Of a stretch of DNA of 32,000 nt, positions 2,521-15,088 are shown piece after piece (the first letter of the stretch is position 1; each line of letters begins with the position of its first letter). Under the pieces are notes generated by a model, which was not told the origin of the DNA, did not search any database, and was given only the letters and a program-made list of their open reading frames with translations. The DNA is taken from assembly GCF_000018105.1 (NCBI RefSeq), contig NC_009925.1, forward strand, positions 3,810,001-3,842,000. Reading direction: 5' to 3'. The position numbers and the translations under genes were made by a program. The stretch comes from Acaryochloris marina MBIC11017. Lineage in GTDB: Bacteria > Cyanobacteriota > Cyanobacteriia > Thermosynechococcales > Thermosynechococcaceae.

Positions 2521-3444
2521 ATGGAATTTTCCTATCAAACCTATCAACGATCGTTCCAACAGCCCTTACAAACAAGATATGGGCCGTGGTCGATCCGTCG
2601 AGGGTTGATGGTTATGTTAGAGGATGATGCTGGCAATATTGGCCAAGGTGAAATTGCTCCTTTATCGTGGTTTGGATCTGAAACTTGGGAACAGGCCCAG
2701 ACCTATTGTCAGCAACTACCTCGACAGCTAACGGACGCTCACATCTTGTCTATCCCAGATCGCTATCCGGCTTGCCAGTTTGGATTGGGTTCAGCGTGGG
2801 AAGCATTACATCAAAATTCCGTATCAGCGTCTGTTTTCCCTGAGATTTGCGGCCTATTACCCACCGGAAGCTCCGCTTTGTCCGCCGCTTCCAAGCTATG
2901 GGAGCAGGGCTATCGAACTTTTAAGTGGAAAATTGGGGTGGATGCCATCGAACAGGAACAGGCTATTTTTCGGCGGTTGATCGTAGCTTTGCCACCGCAA
3001 GCCTTGCTGCGCTTGGATGCCAATGGAGGACTAACCAATGAGTCTGCTTGTCGTTGGCTGCAGCTGTGTGATCAGGTGATGGACACTCTTAGGATTGAAT
3101 ATCTGGAGCAACCGCTCCCCCCCGAGCAATTGTCGGCCATGTTGTCCTTAAGTCAGCAGTTTCAAACCCCATTGGCTTTAGATGAGTCGGTAGCAACTCT
3201 GTCTCAGCTACAACACTGTGTTCAACAAGGATGGAACGGCATTTTCGTGATTAAACCTGCTATTTGTGGTTATCCCCACCGCTTACGTCAGTTTTGCCAA
3301 TCCCATCCGATTGATGCTGTTTTCTCCTCTGTCTTTGAATCAGAGGTGGGGCGGCAGGCCTGTCTGAGATTGGCGGCAGAACTATCGAATCCCCAACGAG
3401 CCATTGGGTTTGGTGTTTGCCATTGGTTGTCCCCTGATGAATAA
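2521..3444 (+). CDS. menC: o-succinylbenzoate synthase (enolase superfamily)
   Basis: ORF 2449-3444. The likely start is ATG 2521 (MEFSYQTYQRSFQQPLQTRYGPWSIRRG), which matches the usual MenC N-terminus pattern. Metal-ligand context is LRLDANGG, YLEQP and ALDES. It overlaps the downstream menE-like gene by 8 nt. The choice of start is inference. Confidence 0.8.
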   Translation: MEFSYQTYQRSFQQPLQTRYGPWSIRRGLMVMLEDDAGNIGQGEIAPLSWFGSETWEQAQTYCQQLPRQLTDAHILSIPDRYPACQFGLGSAWEALHQNSVSASVFPEICGLLPTGSSALSAASKLWEQGYRTFKWKIGVDAIEQEQAIFRRLIVALPPQALLRLDANGGLTNESACRWLQLCDQVMDTLRIEYLEQPLPPEQLSAMLSLSQQFQTPLALDESVATLSQLQHCVQQGWNGIFVIKPAICGYPHRLRQFCQSHPIDAVFSSVFESEVGRQACLRLAAELSNPQRAIGFGVCHWLSPDE

Positions 3445-4897
3445 CGCTTCGTTCTCGGTTGATCCGGTTAAGCCGTCCAGTGCTCACTTATTGGGTTCTC
3501 CCCAAGCAATTTGGCACAGGGAAGACTGGATTCTGGGCCTTAATCATCAGCGTTGGTTAGAGCGAATTCGACAACGACAACGAGAGCTACAAGCGGTGAT
3601 GGAGCGAGAGGGCTATCCCAGAGTCCTGTTAGTTCAGGCTGATCCACTAGAGTTTTTAGCTGGATTGATGGCGGCGTGTTTATGTGATTGTCCTGTATTT
3701 CTCGGGAATCCCCATTGGCAACGTTCTGAATGGCAACAGGTGTTGCTGCTAGTTCAACCCCATGTTATTTGGGATGCCTCTCAGTTGCCTCCGGTAGATA
3801 TCCCAAAACCAGCCCCAGCTAAGCAAGAAGAGAAGGGATGGATTTTAATCTCTACCGGGGGCTCATCGGGACAGGTTCGATTTGCGATTCATACTTGGGA
3901 GACTCTAACTGCCTCGGTTGAAGGCTGCCAAAATCATTTTTTCGGTGGTGAATTGGATGCCATCAATTCCTGCTGCTGGTTACCCCTGTATCACGTCAGT
4001 GGGTTGATGCAGTTTATGCGATCGCTCCTTACATACGGTAAACTCCTCCTCCTCCCACGCCACTGTTTTTCTCCTGAAATCTCCTTGATGCCAGACATAG
4101 CGGCTTTTCTAGATCCGCAATCAGAGCAACCTTATTCCTTTTTTCTCTCCCTCGTTCCTACCCAACTCCAGCGATTCTTGCAACAGGGCGGCCCTCGTTT
4201 ACAATGGCTAGCCCGATTTCACACTATTTTGGTGGGGGGCGGTCCTGCATGGCCCGCTTTACTCCAGGGGGCTCGCCAGCACCAGTTGCGGTTGGCTTTA
4301 ACCTATGGCATGACGGAAACTGCTGCTCAAGTGGCGACATTAGATCCCGATCAATTCCTGCTCGGAGCAGCTCACAGTGGCCATGTTTTGCCCCATGCTC
4401 AAATTGCCATTGAGCATCAGCAACACCAGGGCATTGTGGCTCCTCAAACAGGACAGGTGGTGATTGAATGTACATCTCTTTGTAAAGGATATTACCCGCA
4501 ATTATTAGCCTCACCTCGTAAATTTTTTACGGATGATTTAGGGTATTTCAATAACCAAGGAGCATTGCATATTGTCGGTCGTTTAAGTCGCAAGATTATC
4601 TCTGGGGGGGAGAATGTTTTTCCCGAAGAAATAGAAAAATTAATTTTAAGTACAGGCCTCGTAAAAGATGTGACGGTGTTGGGCCAACCTCATCCCGATT
4701 GGGGCCAAATCATTACCGCCATTGTGGTTCCTGCAGCAGACTCCTTTTCCCTAATCGCATTGCAGACTTGTCTGAAGAATCAACTCAGCCCGTTTAAACA
4801 ACCAAAGCAATGGTATGTCTTGCCTCAGCTGCCCCGTAACCCTCAAGGTAAAATCGACCAATCACAGATGAGGAAACTACTTCAGGTTGATCAGTAG
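3437..4897 (+). CDS. menE: o-succinylbenzoate-CoA ligase (adenylate-forming enzyme)
   Basis: ORF 3404-4897. In-frame ATG at 3437 (MNNASF...) overlaps the menC stop. AMP-binding motifs are ISTGGSSGQVRF (P-loop-like), YGMTET, and GDLGYF-like DDLGYFNNQGALHIVGR, with GKI near the C-terminus. menC-menE adjacency is typical of phylloquinone clusters. Confidence 0.8.
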   Translation: MNNASFSVDPVKPSSAHLLGSPQAIWHREDWILGLNHQRWLERIRQRQRELQAVMEREGYPRVLLVQADPLEFLAGLMAACLCDCPVFLGNPHWQRSEWQQVLLLVQPHVIWDASQLPPVDIPKPAPAKQEEKGWILISTGGSSGQVRFAIHTWETLTASVEGCQNHFFGGELDAINSCCWLPLYHVSGLMQFMRSLLTYGKLLLLPRHCFSPEISLMPDIAAFLDPQSEQPYSFFLSLVPTQLQRFLQQGGPRLQWLARFHTILVGGGPAWPALLQGARQHQLRLALTYGMTETAAQVATLDPDQFLLGAAHSGHVLPHAQIAIEHQQHQGIVAPQTGQVVIECTSLCKGYYPQLLASPRKFFTDDLGYFNNQGALHIVGRLSRKIISGGENVFPEEIEKLILSTGLVKDVTVLGQPHPDWGQIITAIVVPAADSFSLIALQTCLKNQLSPFKQPKQWYVLPQLPRNPQGKIDQSQMRKLLQVDQ

Positions 4898-5310
4898 TGA
4901 CTACAGGGACGGAAATTCTGACATTGACCCATCTAATTTTATTGATATATTTCACTCTGTTAACCCCCGCGAATAAGAGTGAACTTTAGTAAAATCCCTG
5001 AGCTAGCTCTGGGGGTTAATGCTAGATTAAACCCAGGTACAAAAAGTCAAAGTTAACAAGTAACCCCGGAACACGTCAGTACCTCCTACCTCTGTTCTGA
5101 AGAGCAACCTTCTTCCTGAGAACTTACGATTTGTGGTCATCATTTTCTATCAGAAAAAATTGAAGACCAGAACACTTATCTAGTAAAGATATGTAAGACT
5201 TACCTCTTAGAACTGTTGCTGTTGTTAATGTCCACTTTAGTTGTTTTTCTGTAAACTCTATCTATTTTTTCAATTCTGAGCAAACATACATTCTCGGTTT
5301 CTATAGGATT

Positions 5311-5340
5311 AAGGGTTTGGTTACAATAAGCCAAACCCTT
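5311..5340. terminator. Strong hairpin in the convergent spacer between menE and the HAD gene
   Basis: AAGGGTTTGG (5311-5320) and CCAAACCCTT (5331-5340) form a perfect 10-bp stem. On the + strand it is followed by TAGCCGTTTT. There is no clean U-tract on the - strand, so which transcript it terminates is uncertain. Confidence 0.4.
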
Positions 5341-5383
5341 TAGCCGTTTTAAACAGATTTTTAAGACGCTGATGAAATTGGCA

Positions 5384-6169
5384 TTAAGACATCAGTAATC
5401 GTTGCGTAATTTCGATAAATCCTAACCCTTCAGCTGCTTGGGTCATCGCTTGGGGGTGGTGGTCAATCTGCTCCAGGTAGTGAGACAAGTTGGCAACGCC
5501 GACGGAGTGCGGAAAAACTTGAGAATCGAATAGATCTTGATCATTCGGACTATCGCCGATCGTCAAAATTTGGTCTAAATTATATCGCTCCGGTAAATGG
5601 TGTTCTAGAACCGTTAGGAGCCCTGCCTGTTTGTTCTGGCCTTTGGGTTTGATATGACACTGCACTGTACTGTAGGTAAAATCAAATCCTGCCGTGGTAC
5701 AGAGATTTGCCATCTGATCCAAATCGACTGGATCAAAGTCGGGATTATCAAAGGTCCAATCCGTGATTCTAAACGCGTTATCAGCCGTAGTTCGTAGATG
5801 AGGAAAGTGGGTTTGGAGCTGACGAAAAGTGTTGGCTAAGTGAGCACGATGGTCTTTAAGGCCCGGAATGTCTGAAAGCACTTTTCCGGGGGTGTCTGGC
5901 TGATGAAAGAAGAGGCCGCCATTTTCTGCGATCGCACCCTGTATCGGTAAATAATGGGCAAGGCCGCTGACCCAGCCCGCCGAACGCCCCGTCACAATCA
6001 CAACAGCAAAACCACTCTTTTGTAAGTCCCATAGGGCTTGGCCAAAGACGGCTGGGAATTTACCGTTGACGGTCAGGGTGCCATCCATATCGGTGGCAAT
6101 CAGCTTGATAGCGTTGAGCTGCTGTGCAGAGATGTCTGCAAATGGAAGGATGGGATGGTGCATGGACAA
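5384..6169 (-). CDS. HAD-superfamily hydrolase (IIB/Cof-like phosphatase)
   Basis: 261-aa ORF. Motif I is ATDMDGTLT, motif II VTGRS, and motif IV GDSPNDQDLF. The cap region length is typical of HAD-IIB. The substrate is not inferable from sequence. Confidence 0.8.
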   Translation of the reverse strand: MSMHHPILPFADISAQQLNAIKLIATDMDGTLTVNGKFPAVFGQALWDLQKSGFAVVIVTGRSAGWVSGLAHYLPIQGAIAENGGLFFHQPDTPGKVLSDIPGLKDHRAHLANTFRQLQTHFPHLRTTADNAFRITDWTFDNPDFDPVDLDQMANLCTTAGFDFTYSTVQCHIKPKGQNKQAGLLTVLEHHLPERYNLDQILTIGDSPNDQDLFDSQVFPHSVGVANLSHYLEQIDHHPQAMTQAAEGLGFIEITQRLLMS

Positions 6170-10994: not shown

Positions 10995-11192
10995 TGGAGC
11001 AGTTTAATCCGGTAGCCATGGGCTAGATCGCTTGAGAACTATGGCGGTTATAAATTGAGTATGTTAAGGTCAATGACTGGATCAATGGCGTGCTGTGAGG
11101 CAATGGTTCAGATTCTGAATATCTGACTGGCACTTTGACGCTGAAAATTGCAGATCAGTGTACCGCCAAACCCACAAGGTTGATTCACGATT

Positions 11193-11264
11193 GCTCGATT
11201 AGCTCAGAGGGAGAGCACCGAGGGGCCATCTCGGGGGGCGTAGGTTCGAATCCTACATCGACAA
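11193..11264 (+). tRNA. Aberrant tRNA-type gene with a GCC (Gly-type) anticodon triplet, a non-canonical anticodon loop and a mismatched 5' acceptor end
   Basis: Hand-folded cloverleaf. The 5' acceptor strand is GCTCGAT, followed by TA. D arm GCTC/AGAGGGA/GAGC. Anticodon arm CCGAG/GGGCCAT/CTCGG. Variable loop GGGGC. T arm GTAGG/TTCGAAT/CCTAC. The 3' acceptor strand is ATCGACA with discriminator A. Pairs 3-70 to 7-66 are Watson-Crick, but 1-72 is G.A and 2-71 is C.C. Position 33 is G instead of the near-invariant U. No CCA is encoded. It could be a pseudogene. Confidence 0.5.
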
Positions 11265-11267
11265 AAC

Positions 11268-11341
11268 TGAAAGCTAGCTCAGTTGGTTAGAGCATCAGAC
11301 TCATAATCTGACGGACACAGGTTCAAATCCTGTACTTTCCA
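11268..11341 (+). tRNA. tRNA with CAU anticodon (elongator Met or Ile2 type) with U1.C72 and C7.A66 acceptor mismatches
   Basis: The 5' acceptor strand is TGAAAGC, with U8 and A9. D arm GCTC/AGTTGGTTA/GAGC. Anticodon arm TCAGA/CTCATAA/TCTGA. Variable loop CGGAC. T arm ACAGG/TTCAAAT/CCTGT. The 3' acceptor strand is ACTTTCC, discriminator A, then CC. The core is very close to bacterial elongator tRNA-Met. It lacks the GGG/CCC anticodon stem of an initiator. It starts only 3 nt after the previous tRNA-type gene. Confidence 0.75.
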
Positions 11342-11343
11342 CC

Positions 11344-11571: not shown

Positions 11572-11754
11572 TAGCGAACGCCCTATTTGTTGGCGGTTGG
11601 ACCCATGCTTAATCTTCGGGTTGAGTTGCGGTTCTGCTCCACCTTAATTCAGCCAGTCACGGGCGATGGCCCGCACTGTAACTGTTGATGCCAGCAGCTT
11701 AGGGTGCCTTTAAAAGTGCAGATGGACCTGCACGAGAAGAAGAAGGAAATATCA

Positions 11755-13287
11755 ATGTTTAAGTCTTTTTACATTAAGCCCCATGAGCGGGGCATGTTGT
11801 TCTATCGCAGTAAGTTTGAGATGTTTTTGCTGCCGGGTACCCATCGCCGCATGGGGTGGCATTGGCAGGTGAAGACCTTTGATTTAAATCAGCCCCAAGC
11901 CCAGATTGACCATTTGGAGCTGCTATTGCAAACCCATGCCCACAGTATGAATGAGTATTTTACGGTGGTGCGCACGGTTCATAATCAAGCTGCCTTAGTG
12001 CGATTGGGACAACAATGGTGCACGATTGGTCCCAACCAGCTGCAAGCGTTTTGGCGTGGCTTTATTGAGGTAGAAGTGCATCTATTTAATCTGGATGAAG
12101 GGATTGACCTGCCGTCTCAGTTTGTCCAGCGATTGCGAGATGTATCGCTACCGGATTTGAATCTAGTCTCAATTCCTGAATCTCAGCTAGGGATGCTCTA
12201 TGAGCAGGATAATTTTGTGCGGCCTCTCGCGTCTGGAGAGTATGGGTTTTGGACCTGCGATCGCAAAGTCAGTATTACCCGCTATGATCGCACTCGTCCC
12301 GATCCAGATTTTACGTTTGTGGACGTACTGGTCGATGATCATCCCGATTTTGTCACCAGTCACTGTGAATTCGTGCAGTTAGGCAATCAGGAGGTTGCCA
12401 TTGTTCGCCATCAGGGCAAAGTGATTAGGATTTTGCCCCCCTGCAGTCGCCAGTTGTTCTGGCAAGGGGTTGCTGTTGAGGTGATTGATATTAGCGATGA
12501 TGCCAAGCTCTCACCTACATTGGTGGCTGAGTTGGTGGCTGGGGTACCCGAGGTATTGGATTTAGCCTATGAGGCCCTGTATATCTTGGAAGTCCCGGCC
12601 CAGCATTTAGGATTGCTGTATGAAGCCAGCGCTTTTGTCGATACCCTTTCTCCCGGCTGGCATGTCTGGTGGACTTTTGGCCGAGCCTGGAAAACGGAAA
12701 TTGTGGATTTGCGTTTGCAAACCCTAGAAGTCTCTGGCCAGGAAATTTTATCCAAGGATAAGGTGTCCCTGCGTCTAAACCTGACAGCGGGGTATCGGAT
12801 TACGGATCCGGTACAGGCTAAAGCTGGCTTGAGCAATATTGAGGATTATCTCTATAAAGAGCTGCAATTTGCTCTACGTTCGGCCGTGGGGACCAAGTCT
12901 CTAGATCAACTCCTAGAAGACAAGGGGGCGATTGATGCCAGCGTCTCTGACTATATCCGTGAGAAAACCGAGCAATATGGAGTTGCTATCGCATCTGTCG
13001 GTGTCAAAGACATCATTCTGCCCGGTGAGATGAAGTCGATTCTCTGTCAGGTGGTGGAAGCGGAAAAATCCGCCCAGGCTAACGTAATTCGTCGTCGAGA
13101 GGAGACTGCTGCTACCCGCAGTATGCTCAACACCGCTAAGGTGATGGAGAGTAATCCCGTGGCCTTGCGCTTGAAAGAGCTGGAGGTGCTGGAACGGATT
13201 GCGGACAAAATTGAGCATATTCATGTCAATGGCGGTCTCGATAGTATCTTGACTGAGATGATCCGCATCAACGGAACTAGAGAATAG
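11755..13287 (+). CDS. SPFH/band-7 (stomatin/slipin-like) protein with a repeated N-terminal region
   Basis: ORF 11704-13287. ATG 11755 is preceded by GAAGGAAATATCA (SD-like), giving MFKSFYIKPHERGMLF. The C-terminal half is a clear SPFH domain followed by a coiled coil: EILSKDKVSLRLNLTAGYRITDP...YGVAIASVGVKDIILPGEMKSILCQVVEAEKSAQANVIRRREETAATRS...LRLKELEVLERIA. Confidence 0.85.
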   Translation: MFKSFYIKPHERGMLFYRSKFEMFLLPGTHRRMGWHWQVKTFDLNQPQAQIDHLELLLQTHAHSMNEYFTVVRTVHNQAALVRLGQQWCTIGPNQLQAFWRGFIEVEVHLFNLDEGIDLPSQFVQRLRDVSLPDLNLVSIPESQLGMLYEQDNFVRPLASGEYGFWTCDRKVSITRYDRTRPDPDFTFVDVLVDDHPDFVTSHCEFVQLGNQEVAIVRHQGKVIRILPPCSRQLFWQGVAVEVIDISDDAKLSPTLVAELVAGVPEVLDLAYEALYILEVPAQHLGLLYEASAFVDTLSPGWHVWWTFGRAWKTEIVDLRLQTLEVSGQEILSKDKVSLRLNLTAGYRITDPVQAKAGLSNIEDYLYKELQFALRSAVGTKSLDQLLEDKGAIDASVSDYIREKTEQYGVAIASVGVKDIILPGEMKSILCQVVEAEKSAQANVIRRREETAATRSMLNTAKVMESNPVALRLKELEVLERIADKIEHIHVNGGLDSILTEMIRINGTRE

Positions 13288-13326
13288 AGCCGATCGGGCA
13301 TCGGCTCCACACTGAAAAGGCAAACG

Positions 13327-13770
13327 ATGGAAGCTGTAATCTTGGTGGGTATTCAGGCTACGGGTAAATCGACGTTTTATCACCACCAGTTTGGACGCAC
13401 CCATGTGCGGATCAACCTGGATATGTTGAAAACACGACATCGTGAGCAACAGTTTTTGGATACCTGCCTAGTCACCCGCCAACGGTTTGTGGTGGATAAC
13501 ACGAATCCTACCCCTGCTGAGCGACAGCGGTATATCCAACCCGCTCAACAACAGGGTTTTTCGATTACGGGGTATTACTTTGAATCGAAGTTGGCAGCGG
13601 CTTTGATTCGGAATTGCGATCGCACGCCTGACCAACGCATTCCAGACAAAGGGATTCGCGGGACAGCCTCTCGCCTGATCTTGCCTACCTATGATGAGGG
13701 GTTTGACCAGCTTTTTTCCGTTCGTCTTCTTCCTCATCAACAATTTTCGGTTGAGGATTGGCAATTATGA
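13327..13770 (+). CDS. Polynucleotide 5'-hydroxyl kinase (P-loop, PNKP / T4 Pnk kinase-domain family)
   Basis: 147 aa. Walker A VGIQATGKST, then RINLD (catalytic Asp context), VVDNTNPTPAERQRYIQPAQQQGFSITGYYFES, IRNCDR and PTYDEGFDQLFSV. This is collinear with my recollection of the mammalian PNKP kinase domain (VIDNTNPD..SR.RYI..A...G...RCF.F, ...P...EGF) and T4 Pnk (GSGKST, NRDD, SDTN, RNSKR). RBS AAAGG lies 6 nt upstream. Confidence 0.85.
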   Translation: MEAVILVGIQATGKSTFYHHQFGRTHVRINLDMLKTRHREQQFLDTCLVTRQRFVVDNTNPTPAERQRYIQPAQQQGFSITGYYFESKLAAALIRNCDRTPDQRIPDKGIRGTASRLILPTYDEGFDQLFSVRLLPHQQFSVEDWQL

Positions 13771-14528
13771 AATTTACTGAACTCGATCAAACCTTGAGGA
13801 TCTATGAAACCGCTTATGACCTCTGCGTTCTGCCTGGGCTGCAGATGGTCGCTCGGTTAGATGGACGGAATTTTACTCGGTTAACGAAAGAAACCCTCGA
13901 TTTAGATGCTCCCTTTGATGCCACCTTTCGAGATGCCATGGTGGCAACGGTTCAGCATTTGATGACCTGTGGATTTCGAGTCCTTTATGGCTATACCCAA
14001 AGCGATGAAATCTCTTTACTGCTGCACCCAGACGAGCAGACCTTTGCTCGTAAGCTACGTAAACTCAACTCCGTGCTTGCAGCGGAAGCTAGTGCGAAAA
14101 TGTCGTTGATCTTAGGCTGTATAGCAGTTTTCGACTGTCGAATCTCCCAACTGCCAACGGTGGATTTAGTGGTCGACTACTTCCGATGGCGACAAGAAGA
14201 TGCCCATCGCAATGCCCTCAATGCCCATTGCTACTGGATGTTGCGTAAAGGGGGTGATTCAGCGGGCACTGCAACCCAGAAATTAGAGGGATTATCCGTT
14301 GGCGATAAAAATGAATTGCTGTTTCAACTGGGGCAGATGAACTTTAACGACTTACCCCCCTGGCAAAAACGAGGAGTGGGCTGTCTTTGGCAGTCGTATC
14401 CAACGGCAGGTGTTAACCCTGTTTCAGGAGAAGTATCTCAAGGGACGCGAACGAAAATCGGCGTTGAGCTTAACTTGCCGATGAAAGAGCACTACAGGGA
14501 ATTTATCCTTAAGCGAATGACGCTCTAG
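13767..14528 (+). CDS. Thg1-like protein (TLP), tRNA(His) guanylyltransferase family 3'-5' nucleotidyltransferase
   Basis: ORF 13758-14528. ATG 13767 overlaps the kinase TGA (ATGA). Family hallmarks are VARLDGRNFTRLT, YGYTQSDEISLLL, VFDCRISQLP, DYFRWRQEDAHRNALNAHCYWML, GDKNELLF and WQKRG. These are collinear with eukaryotic Thg1 (VVRLDGRNFHRF, YGQSDEYSFVF, FDGRVV, YLSWRQADCHINNLYN, DKNEILF, RKG). Confidence 0.9.
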   Translation: MKFTELDQTLRIYETAYDLCVLPGLQMVARLDGRNFTRLTKETLDLDAPFDATFRDAMVATVQHLMTCGFRVLYGYTQSDEISLLLHPDEQTFARKLRKLNSVLAAEASAKMSLILGCIAVFDCRISQLPTVDLVVDYFRWRQEDAHRNALNAHCYWMLRKGGDSAGTATQKLEGLSVGDKNELLFQLGQMNFNDLPPWQKRGVGCLWQSYPTAGVNPVSGEVSQGTRTKIGVELNLPMKEHYREFILKRMTL

Positions 14529-15088
14529 TCCTGAGGTAAAACCCTAAGCCAGGGCTTATGGGCTCGGCGGCGCTCTAAACTCATTTCTAAGCCATAGGCT
14601 TTAAATTCTTGTTCACTGTAATATTCCCGGAACCGGGCTAAAGGGACACGGGATCGACCATCTAGAGAGTGAACAATAGAAGTCGGAAGACGGACATCCC
14701 CGCCTAAGTGAACAAAGGCTTCTTCCACTGTCATCCAGGGGCGTTTGGAATCGCTAACTTCTGTGGGAATGGCTTGTTCTAAACTGCTGAGTTTATCGGT
14801 TAGGCCCTTAACCATATTGCCGGGCTTGATATTCGAATTTTGCTTTGATTTCTGTAGTTTCCCCATCCATACTTGAAACAGAGAGCCGACATACTGGAAG
14901 ATTCGCTTGAGGATTCGCCCACAGACTTGCAGAATACTGCCAACCCCAGCCCCTTCTTGACTAGATGGGTTGTTATGGGAAGCGATAGCCGCACTAGACC
15001 AGCCGCAATGAGCACAAACTTGACGACCGGATTTGAGAGGAGGGCCTAAGCGATTGGAACAACGGGGGCAGGTTTCCAGCATAGTCAA
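14525..15088 (-). CDS. Hypothetical protein with an N-terminal zinc ribbon
   Basis: 187 aa. CPRCSNRLGPPLKSGRQVCAHCGW is a CxxC...CxxC motif. It is convergent with the TLP gene and overlaps it by 4 nt. No other family signature is recognised. Confidence 0.55.
   Translation of the reverse strand: MTMLETCPRCSNRLGPPLKSGRQVCAHCGWSSAAIASHNNPSSQEGAGVGSILQVCGRILKRIFQYVGSLFQVWMGKLQKSKQNSNIKPGNMVKGLTDKLSSLEQAIPTEVSDSKRPWMTVEEAFVHLGGDVRLPTSIVHSLDGRSRVPLARFREYYSEQEFKAYGLEMSLERRRAHKPWLRVLPQD

Follow-up and report, generated by a model that had tools for sequence, protein, structure and literature searches.

Two adjacent genes of Acaryochloris marina MBIC11017, one encoding a polynucleotide kinase (PNK)-type P-loop kinase and the other a Thg1-like protein (TLP), constitute, to judge from comparative sequence analysis, a conserved and translationally coupled two-gene unit, and we put at about 0.6 the probability that together they form a self-contained cassette for healing and then rebuilding the 5' end of a structured RNA, most likely tRNA. 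The pair lies within a 32,000 nt stretch of DNA (NCBI RefSeq assembly GCF_000018105.1, contig NC_009925.1, positions 3,810,001 to 3,842,000 of the forward strand), referred to here in its entirety as the window and numbered from its first letter. A conserved neighbourhood of PNK and Thg1 genes, a scheme in which the kinase acts first and Thg1 second, and a role in RNA repair were predicted by Anantharaman, Iyer & Aravind (2010, Biol Direct 5:43; PMC2904730), so that the interpretation reached in an initial annotation of this DNA, made from the letters alone, is a rediscovery. As both the pairing and its explanation are already known as a prediction, the value of the present analysis lies in confirming and sharpening that prediction and not in discovery. 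What is new here comprises the reciprocal linkage frequencies, the conserved gene overlap with its internal Shine–Dalgarno (SD) sequence and the co-divergence of the two proteins, together with the structural placement of the kinase beside PNKP, the absence of a kinase in the clade of the B. thuringiensis enzyme BtTLP, and a second, SbcCD-like gene context for the kinase family.

Linkage of the two genes and their overlapping junction

The genes and their junction are as follows.

13327..13770, + strand: gene for a stand-alone polynucleotide-kinase-type P-loop kinase of 147 aa (ATG at 13327, TGA at 13768-13770)
13767..14528, + strand: gene for the TLP, 253 aa (ATG at 13767, TAG at 14526-14528)
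13767..13770, + strand: ATGA stop/start overlap of 4 nt (TLP ATG at 13767-13769, kinase TGA at 13768-13770)
13753..13757, + strand: SD-like GAGGA in the last kinase codons, 10-14 nt before the TLP ATG

Both open reading frames (ORFs) sit where the initial annotation had placed them, the ATGA overlap that it described is visible in the sequence, and every motif that it cited can be read in the window translations (GIQATGKST, RINLD, VVDNTNP and RNCDR in the kinase; RLDGRNF, SDEISLL, WRQEDAHRNAL and DKNELLF in the TLP). Its choice of start codon for the TLP was also correct. The mechanical ORF list puts this start at a TTG codon at position 13758, but 81 TLP homologues begin with the sequence M-K-F at the position of the ATG at 13767 (M1 conserved in at least 95%, F3 invariant), and we therefore take the ATG and not the TTG to be the start.

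Conservation of the pair was assessed from both of its sides. A TLP-anchored set, with one genome per GTDB species, comprised 80 loci (TLP identity 57-81%) from about 10 phyla (Cyanobacteria, Chloroflexota, Bacillota, Bacteroidota, Planctomycetota, Pseudomonadota, Spirochaetota, Actinomycetota, Myxococcota and others). One of these loci ends at a contig edge, and in 73 of the 79 testable ones (92%) the TLP gene is preceded, in the same orientation, by a gene for a kinase homologue (40-89% identity). A kinase-anchored set was made up of 80 metagenome loci fetched by alignment to the kinase, 77 of them testable, and here a TLP gene is found immediately downstream in 59 (77%). The pairing, with its overlapping junction, is not unique to this genome, and the finding that the initial annotation had named as its own refutation is thereby excluded; indeed, the two genes are adjacent and co-directional and recur as such across lineages, as in the published PNK-Thg1 neighbourhood. 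The pairwise identities of kinase and TLP are correlated (Mantel r = 0.80, a value reached by 0 of 999 permutations), with the kinase diverging faster (mean identity 49% versus 64% for the TLP). All-versus-all clustering of the ORFs within 3.5 kb of 81 TLPs revealed no third gene family conserved with the pair across phyla; the clusters that did emerge were antisense shadow ORFs or reflected synteny within single lineages, as in an Oxalobacteraceae block. The conserved unit therefore consists of exactly two genes.

The manner in which the two genes are joined is similarly conserved. Among the 74 pairs of the genome set, the window included, the overlap measures 11 nt in 52, 4 nt in 10 and 14 nt in 3, the remainder being seven pairs with spacings from a 1-nt overlap to a 31-nt gap and two with an inserted gene; among the 59 metagenome pairs the corresponding counts are 42, 8 and 5. 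An overlap of 11, 4 or 14 nt thus accounts for about 90% of pairs. Of 126 coupled pairs, 92 have a GGAG, GAGG or AGGA core between positions -20 and -4 relative to the TLP start, compared with 11% of control windows inside kinase genes, and this SD-like core falls 8-16 nt ahead of the start, within the codons for a conserved V-E-E-W at the kinase C terminus. The initial annotation had held that the overlap implies stoichiometric co-expression; translational coupling is indeed implied, whereas a 1:1 stoichiometry does not necessarily follow.

The kinase

The sequence elements on which the assignment of the kinase depends are the following.

13348..13374, + strand: Walker A motif (P-loop), G8-IQATGKS-T16 (G8, Q10, G13 and K14 conserved in at least 95% of 73 family members)
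13420..13422, + strand: Asp32 (in RINLD), putative general base activating the 5'-OH (invariant in 73/73; aligns with the Asp of PNKP VNRD)
13495..13506, + strand: D57-N-T-N60, Walker-B-like motif (all four residues invariant; aligns with PNKP IDNTNP)

That the kinase is of the PNK type, as initially annotated, is well supported by its predicted structural matches in combination with aligned and conserved motifs. An AlphaFold2 model built from 40 homologues (predicted local distance difference test, pLDDT, 94.1; predicted template-modelling score, pTM, 0.88) was compared with the PDB using Foldseek, and the matches ranked 1-17 were all polynucleotide 5'-kinases (E 1.5e-11 to 1e-6, template-modelling (TM) score 0.75-0.83). 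The top match was the kinase domain of mouse PNKP (E 1.5e-11, TM 0.82, 29% identity), and further top matches included two fungal GDP-bound kinases (9DRZ and 9D8A), which we take to be Trl1-type kinases, and the kinase domain of C. thermocellum Pnkp. PSTK, PFKFB, T4 Pnk and gluconokinase all ranked below these 17 and had lower TM scores, the small-molecule kinases PFKFB and gluconokinase with TM scores of 0.5-0.6. By sequence, the sole solved relatives are mammalian PNKP kinase domains (mouse PNKP, 2e-8), and the alignment pairs GIQATGKST with GFPGAGKST, INLD with VNRD, VVDNTNP with VIDNTNP and RNCDR with NNRFR. The polynucleotide-kinase signature is present, in that G8-x4-G13-K14-S15-T16, D32 and R99 match PNKP motifs, and R66, R99, P106, P120 and E124 are likewise invariant in the 73 family members. 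The role of the catalytic Asp is known from PNKP and T4 Pnk.

In Pfam the protein belongs to AAA_33 by a score exceeding the gathering threshold (4e-11), whereas in NCBIfam its matches are confined to the kinase segment of PNK-3'Pase (1e-12). Equivalog cut-offs are missed by a wide interval, at 47 versus 503 bits for TIGR01663 (PNK-3'Pase) and 16 versus 750 bits for TIGR04075 (bacterial Pnkp), and no second domain, whether phosphatase, FHA or adenylyltransferase, was found in the 147 aa by Pfam or NCBIfam. The database label is simply 'AAA family ATPase / predicted kinase'. By these profile matches, the protein is a minimal stand-alone enzyme and not an orthologue of PNKP or of bacterial Pnkp.

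The Thg1-like protein

In the TLP, catalytic and putative tRNA-contact residues can be located as follows.

13860..13862, + strand: Asp32 (in RLDGRNF), first metal-binding carboxylate (R30, D32 and G33 invariant in 81/81)
14001..14009, + strand: S79-D80-E81 (in SDEIS), second catalytic carboxylate set (invariant in 81/81)
14208..14213, + strand: R148-N149, equivalents of R136/N137 of the M. acetivorans enzyme MaTLP (aligned to 5AXK with HMMER; both invariant)
14448..14450, + strand: R228, equivalent of the MaTLP beta-hairpin residue R215 (aligned to 5AXK with HMMER; at least 95% conserved)

The protein matches the Pfam families Thg1 (PF04446; 6.5e-28, 97.7 bits against a cut-off of 29.2) and Thg1C (PF14413; 1.7e-16, 60.9 bits against a cut-off of 26.3), as well as PHROG 4717; for this protein and for the kinase alike, the domain assignment lies well outside what chance would give. 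Although NCBI and JGI label it 'tRNA(His) guanylyltransferase', its best PDB matches by sequence are MaTLP (5AXK, 7.6e-25) and BtTLP (4KGK, 5e-20), with human and yeast Thg1 ranking behind both. The block R148-N-x-L-N-A-H-C-Y-W-M158 is invariant in the 81 homologues, and the protein has HRNALNAH where eukaryotic Thg1 has HINNLYN, the motif of eukaryote-type Thg1. The initial assignment of the second protein as a TLP is thus borne out both by RNALNAH in place of HINNLYN and by the identity of its nearest solved relatives. TLPs, a family of template-dependent 3'-5' RNA polymerases, are widespread in bacteria: with the window TLP as query, matches were obtained to about 8,000 clusters of proteins grouped at 90% identity.

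Residues D32, D80 and E81 are the equivalents of D29, D76 and E77 of human Thg1 and align with their counterparts in BtTLP and MaTLP, and the catalytic role of the residue equivalent to Asp32 is known from Thg1 and TLP structures (PMC3701042). In the crystal structure of MaTLP with tRNA, R136 and N137 hold the 5' end of the tRNA, and S213 and R215 of the beta-hairpin hold the elbow (PMC4820378). Because catalytic and tRNA-contact residues are both kept, the window TLP looks like an active, tRNA-binding and anticodon-independent enzyme.

Proposed mechanism and its implications

Our working model is one of sequential action on a single RNA end. An RNA would lose one or a few 5' nucleotides by transesterifying cleavage, of the kind carried out by toxin-type RNases, or by chemical scission, leaving a recessed 5'-OH that faces a 3' overhang. 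The kinase would then move the gamma-phosphate of a nucleoside triphosphate (NTP) onto this 5'-OH, with Asp32 as general base and with Lys14 and Arg99 holding the NTP. The TLP would use ATP or GTP to activate the 5'-monophosphate so formed, yielding App- or Gpp-RNA, and would go on to extend the RNA in the 3'-5' direction with nucleotides chosen by Watson-Crick pairing to the 3' strand of the acceptor stem, halting at full stem length. Both proteins would be produced together from one mRNA by way of translational coupling. PNKP prefers recessed 5' ends, and by analogy a 5'-truncated acceptor stem would fit the geometry that PNKP favours. In this model, we infer the activity and the substrate of the kinase, the in vivo substrate of the pair and the source of the damage; activation and templated 3'-5' addition, on the other hand, are established in vitro for BtTLP, MaTLP and the M. 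xanthus enzyme MxTLP (PMC3061083, PMC3701042, PMC11957112). In such assays TLPs repair 5'-truncated tRNAs, the 5'-monophosphate substrates having been made by the experimenters with T4 PNK (PMC3061083).

The coupled kinase is the strongest available clue to the role of bacterial TLPs, as it suggests that the natural substrate arrives with a 5'-OH and would therefore have been generated by a transesterifying RNase or by chemical scission, not by RNase P or a hydrolytic exonuclease. To our knowledge, 3'-5' RNA polymerization is the sole known exception to the direction of nucleic acid synthesis. A 2025 preprint by the main laboratory in the TLP field lists only two TLPs with a known physiological function, both from Dictyostelium mitochondria (PMC11957112), and a 2019 review of TLPs contains 0 mentions of the word 'kinase' (PMC6471195). 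The kinase-TLP pair is a well-defined and neglected handle on the role of bacterial TLPs, albeit one that will not surprise a specialist. A possible, though doubtful, extension of the model is that the cassette counters a class of damage not yet described, in which nucleases or stress chemistry clip the 5' strand of the tRNA acceptor stem and leave a 5'-OH; within the same tentative reading, the candidate sources of damage would be toxin-antitoxin, interbacterial or phage-conflict RNases such as MazF-type enzymes. If true, this would amount to a new tRNA-damage pathway and to the first physiological role for bacterial 3'-5' polymerases. A more extreme variant still would have reverse polymerization take place at recessed 5'-OH ends of DNA or of hybrids, with which the PNKP-like fold and the SbcCD-like context of the kinase family would be compatible.

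Evidence against the model and alternative explanations

The comparative evidence supports the 5'-end healing and rebuilding role proposed in the initial annotation, as a predicted function, and several observations weigh against it. Members of the kinase family also occur apart from TLPs, given that 18 of the 77 testable kinase-anchored loci have no TLP gene. PNKP is a DNA-repair kinase, so that the best structural match of the window kinase is itself a DNA kinase. We know of no nuclease that clips the 5' strand of the tRNA acceptor stem to leave a 5'-OH, and for this reason the damage to be repaired is hypothetical. BtTLP-type genes, which are about 30% identical and are carried by B. thuringiensis plasmids and Bacillus phages, lack a kinase gene beside them, and the published enzymology therefore does not verifiably come from a kinase-linked TLP. 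Finally, literature searches for an experimental test of the pair turned up only the 2010 prediction, and no biochemistry or genetics of the kinase family was found in them.

A further point concerns the substrate of the kinase. In three of the 18 kinase-anchored metagenome loci that lack a TLP gene, the kinase is about 57% identical to that of the window (L096, kinase at about 1190-1639; L098, about 3001-3450; L107, 3001-3489). It sits in all three between an Mre11/SbcD-like Metallophos gene and a Rad50/SbcC-like gene (in L107, at 1741-2976 and 3486-6047, respectively), the latter encoding an ATPase of 853-855 aa with Rad50_zn_hook and SbcC_Walker_B domains, and the stop of the kinase gene overlaps the start of the ATPase gene. 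We know of no described SbcD-PNK-SbcC operon. Such an arrangement would suggest healing of 5'-OH DNA ends coupled to SbcCD, and judged by its gene contexts the kinase family is probably a general polynucleotide-end-healing module. Since the family also occurs in SbcD/SbcC-like operons, a preference of the kinase for RNA in the TLP context is an assumption.

These loci bear directly on the best placed of the alternatives, which we nonetheless consider unlikely, namely that the chemistry is as proposed and the substrate is not tRNA, being instead another structured non-coding RNA, an RNA:DNA hybrid or a DNA end. The SbcD-kinase-SbcC loci and the position of the DNA-repair kinase PNKP as the nearest solved relative of the window kinase both speak for it, as does the fact that TLPs accept many RNAs without anticodon recognition (PMC6471195, PMC4820378). 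However, the window TLP retains the residues that in MaTLP contact the 5' end and the elbow of tRNA, the published activities of TLPs are all on RNA, and neighbour clustering found no DNA-repair gene conserved beside the kinase-TLP pair.

It is very improbable, in our estimation, that the TLP merely adenylylates or guanylylates the 5' end, App- or Gpp-RNA then serving as a cap-like mark or as an intermediate in ligation. Activation is a separable reaction of TLPs (PMC3701042), RNA ligation through 5'-App has been raised as an alternative, and links to MACRO and RNA-ligase genes exist in some genomes (PMC2904730). Yet the residues for nucleotidyl transfer, for the template and for contact with the 5' end are all invariant, and neither a ligase nor a MACRO gene is conserved with the cassette in the 80 + 80 loci.

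There is an even smaller likelihood that the TLP is, as its NCBI and JGI name has it, a tRNA-His guanylyltransferase that supplies or restores G-1, with the kinase as an accessory or an unrelated protein. BtTLP is capable of N-1 addition to tRNA-His and gives weak complementation of yeast thg1, but bacterial genes generally encode G-1 and so have no need of its addition (PMC3061083). The TLP-type motif RNALNAH in place of HINNLYN, and the linkage to the kinase in 92% of loci with a conserved overlap, also argue against this explanation. Moreover, RNase P leaves a 5'-P, so that a G-1 pathway needs no kinase.

Least probable of all is that the pair is a conflict system, anti-phage or toxic, which modifies the 5' ends of foreign or self RNA or makes a nucleotide signal: the related GGDEF and Cas10 palm domains do make such signals, one related locus (L026) abuts a type I restriction-modification methylase gene, and the combination of a patchy distribution and about 60% identity between phyla points to horizontal transfer, but no PADLOC model (PADLOC-DB v2) matches the kinase, the TLP or either flanking gene, the window neighbours are housekeeping genes, defence-island neighbours do not recur, the kinase family is essentially absent from phages, and the tRNA-binding residues of the TLP are conserved.

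Variant gene contexts

A number of related loci depart from the simple two-gene arrangement. On the mobilizable plasmid p_TS293_5 of Deinococcus taeanensis (L082, 2510-6726), a 45%-identical pair with a 4-nt overlap between kinase and TLP genes is followed, about 1 kb downstream, by a DUF705 gene, a gene for the RNA 3'-ribose 2'-O-methyltransferase Hen1 and a nucleotidyltransferase gene. Together these look like a larger RNA-repair island; this plasmid is the only one of the related loci in which Hen1 is found near the pair. Three Anaerolineae loci (L010, 68-3140; L014, 1766-4844; L018, 4364-6310) have a TLP gene without a kinase gene, with a PemK/MazF-type toxin gene upstream and, downstream, two tandem genes for RlaP (PF10127) RNA-repair nucleotidyltransferases, the first of which overlaps the TLP stop. 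In another locus (L016, 4437-4913), a MazF-like gene on the opposite strand is inserted between the kinase and TLP genes. Cleavage by MazF yields 5'-OH ends. On a Thiodictyon plasmid, the gene next downstream of the TLP gene carries the annotation of a nucleotidyltransferase domain protein. The Deinococcus, Anaerolineae and Thiodictyon contexts place this clade of TLPs in RNA repair. Outside it, on the B. thuringiensis plasmid pAM65-52-3-235K (L083, 821-3717), a BtTLP-type gene is preceded by genes for a SLOG-family protein and a GIY-YIG nuclease in place of a kinase, a different context for the clade on which enzymology has been published.

A phage origin of the pair was considered and rejected: the 151 records of phage TLPs show about 30% identity and come without a kinase, and the kinase family has one weak phage match.

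Flanking features in the window

The features around the pair are as follows.

11192-11343, + strand: tRNA-Gly(GCC) and tRNA-Met(CAT) genes, 2 nt apart, about 360 nt upstream of the Band_7 gene
11704-13287, + strand: SPFH/Band_7 gene, 527 aa (domain in residues 296-467 only)
13287..13307, + strand: 8-bp hairpin, GAGCCGAT / ATCGGCTC, beginning at the last base of the Band_7 stop and ending 20 nt before the kinase ATG
14525-15088, - strand: convergent ORF of 187 aa, overlapping the TLP stop by 4 nt, with an N-terminal CxxC...CxxC zinc-ribbon-like motif

Within about 5 kb, the genes of the window are of housekeeping type only. The initial annotation had remarked that no ligase, phosphoesterase or methyltransferase lies nearby, which holds for about 5 kb on either side of the pair in the window and, as regards conserved association, for the related loci too; 3'-phosphatase and cyclase genes are equally lacking over that distance, and none of these functions is conserved in the 80 related loci. 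As candidates for a conserved neighbour, ligase, MACRO, phosphoesterase and toxin genes were each rejected, none being found across phyla in the clustering around the 81 TLPs.

The Band_7 gene is 92-93% conserved in Acaryochloris metagenome-assembled genomes, and the 295 N-terminal residues of its product have no Pfam match. It is separated from the kinase gene by a 39-nt spacer in which neither a sigma-70-like promoter nor a T-run terminator was seen, and it may be co-transcribed with the kinase-TLP pair in the Acaryochloris lineage only. As a third component it was rejected, its upstream position being conserved only in two Acaryochloris loci (L001 and L002). The hairpin (minimum free energy -12.5 kcal/mol, z = -1.5, no T-run) has counterparts at the same place in these two loci that differ in sequence, so that its stem would be kept by compensatory changes; it may bound or stabilize the transcript, and whether it forms part of the kinase-TLP cassette is uncertain. 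The convergent ORF was likewise rejected as a partner, being present only in L001 (86% conserved) and having no Pfam, NCBIfam or PADLOC match. The two tRNA genes, 2 kb upstream, found no support as substrates or as an integration site; they do not recur in other loci.

Comparison with known systems

The window pair is the same system as the neighbourhood described in 2010, with no difference of substance; the MACRO and RNA-ligase links reported there are absent from the loci of the window TLP clade (PMC2904730). With PNKP (1YJ5, 3U7G) and C. thermocellum Pnkp (4GP6, 4MDE) the window kinase shares the P-loop kinase fold (TM 0.76-0.83) and aligned Walker A, Asp, DNTN and Arg motifs; PNKP and Pnkp are multidomain proteins, whereas the window kinase is a single-domain protein of 147 aa with a putative substrate. 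BtTLP (4KGK), MaTLP (5AXK) and MxTLP share with the window TLP the Thg1 and Thg1C domains, the catalytic carboxylates and the tRNA-contact residues, and in vitro they repair tRNAs with truncated 5' ends by templated 3'-5' addition (PMC3061083, PMC4820378, PMC11957112). However, the window TLP is only about 30% identical to BtTLP and MaTLP, and in the assays of BtTLP, MaTLP and MxTLP the 5'-P or 5'-ppp substrates were supplied by the experimenter.

A closer parallel to the proposed rebuilding is offered by DdiTLP3, which acts in the 5'-editing of Dictyostelium mitochondrial tRNAs and rebuilds the acceptor stem by templated 3'-5' addition after removal of 5' nucleotides; the second TLP with a proven function also takes part in the maturation of Dictyostelium mitochondrial tRNAs (PMC6471195, PMC11957112). 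DdiTLP3 differs from the window TLP in serving a eukaryotic organellar pathway that corrects encoded mismatches, with no partner kinase reported (PMC6471195, PMC11957112), and bacterial tRNA genes do not carry encoded mismatches of the Dictyostelium type (PMC3061083). The logic proposed for the window pair is that of Pnkp/Hen1, of RtcA/RtcB and of T4 Pnk with Rnl1, in which an RNA end is first healed and its 5'-P is then activated by a nucleotidyl-transferase; T4 Pnk, for example, makes the 5'-P that the ligase adenylylates. Where Pnkp/Hen1, RtcAB and the T4 system seal breaks between fragments, however, the kinase and TLP of the window would re-synthesize the nucleotides that had been lost.

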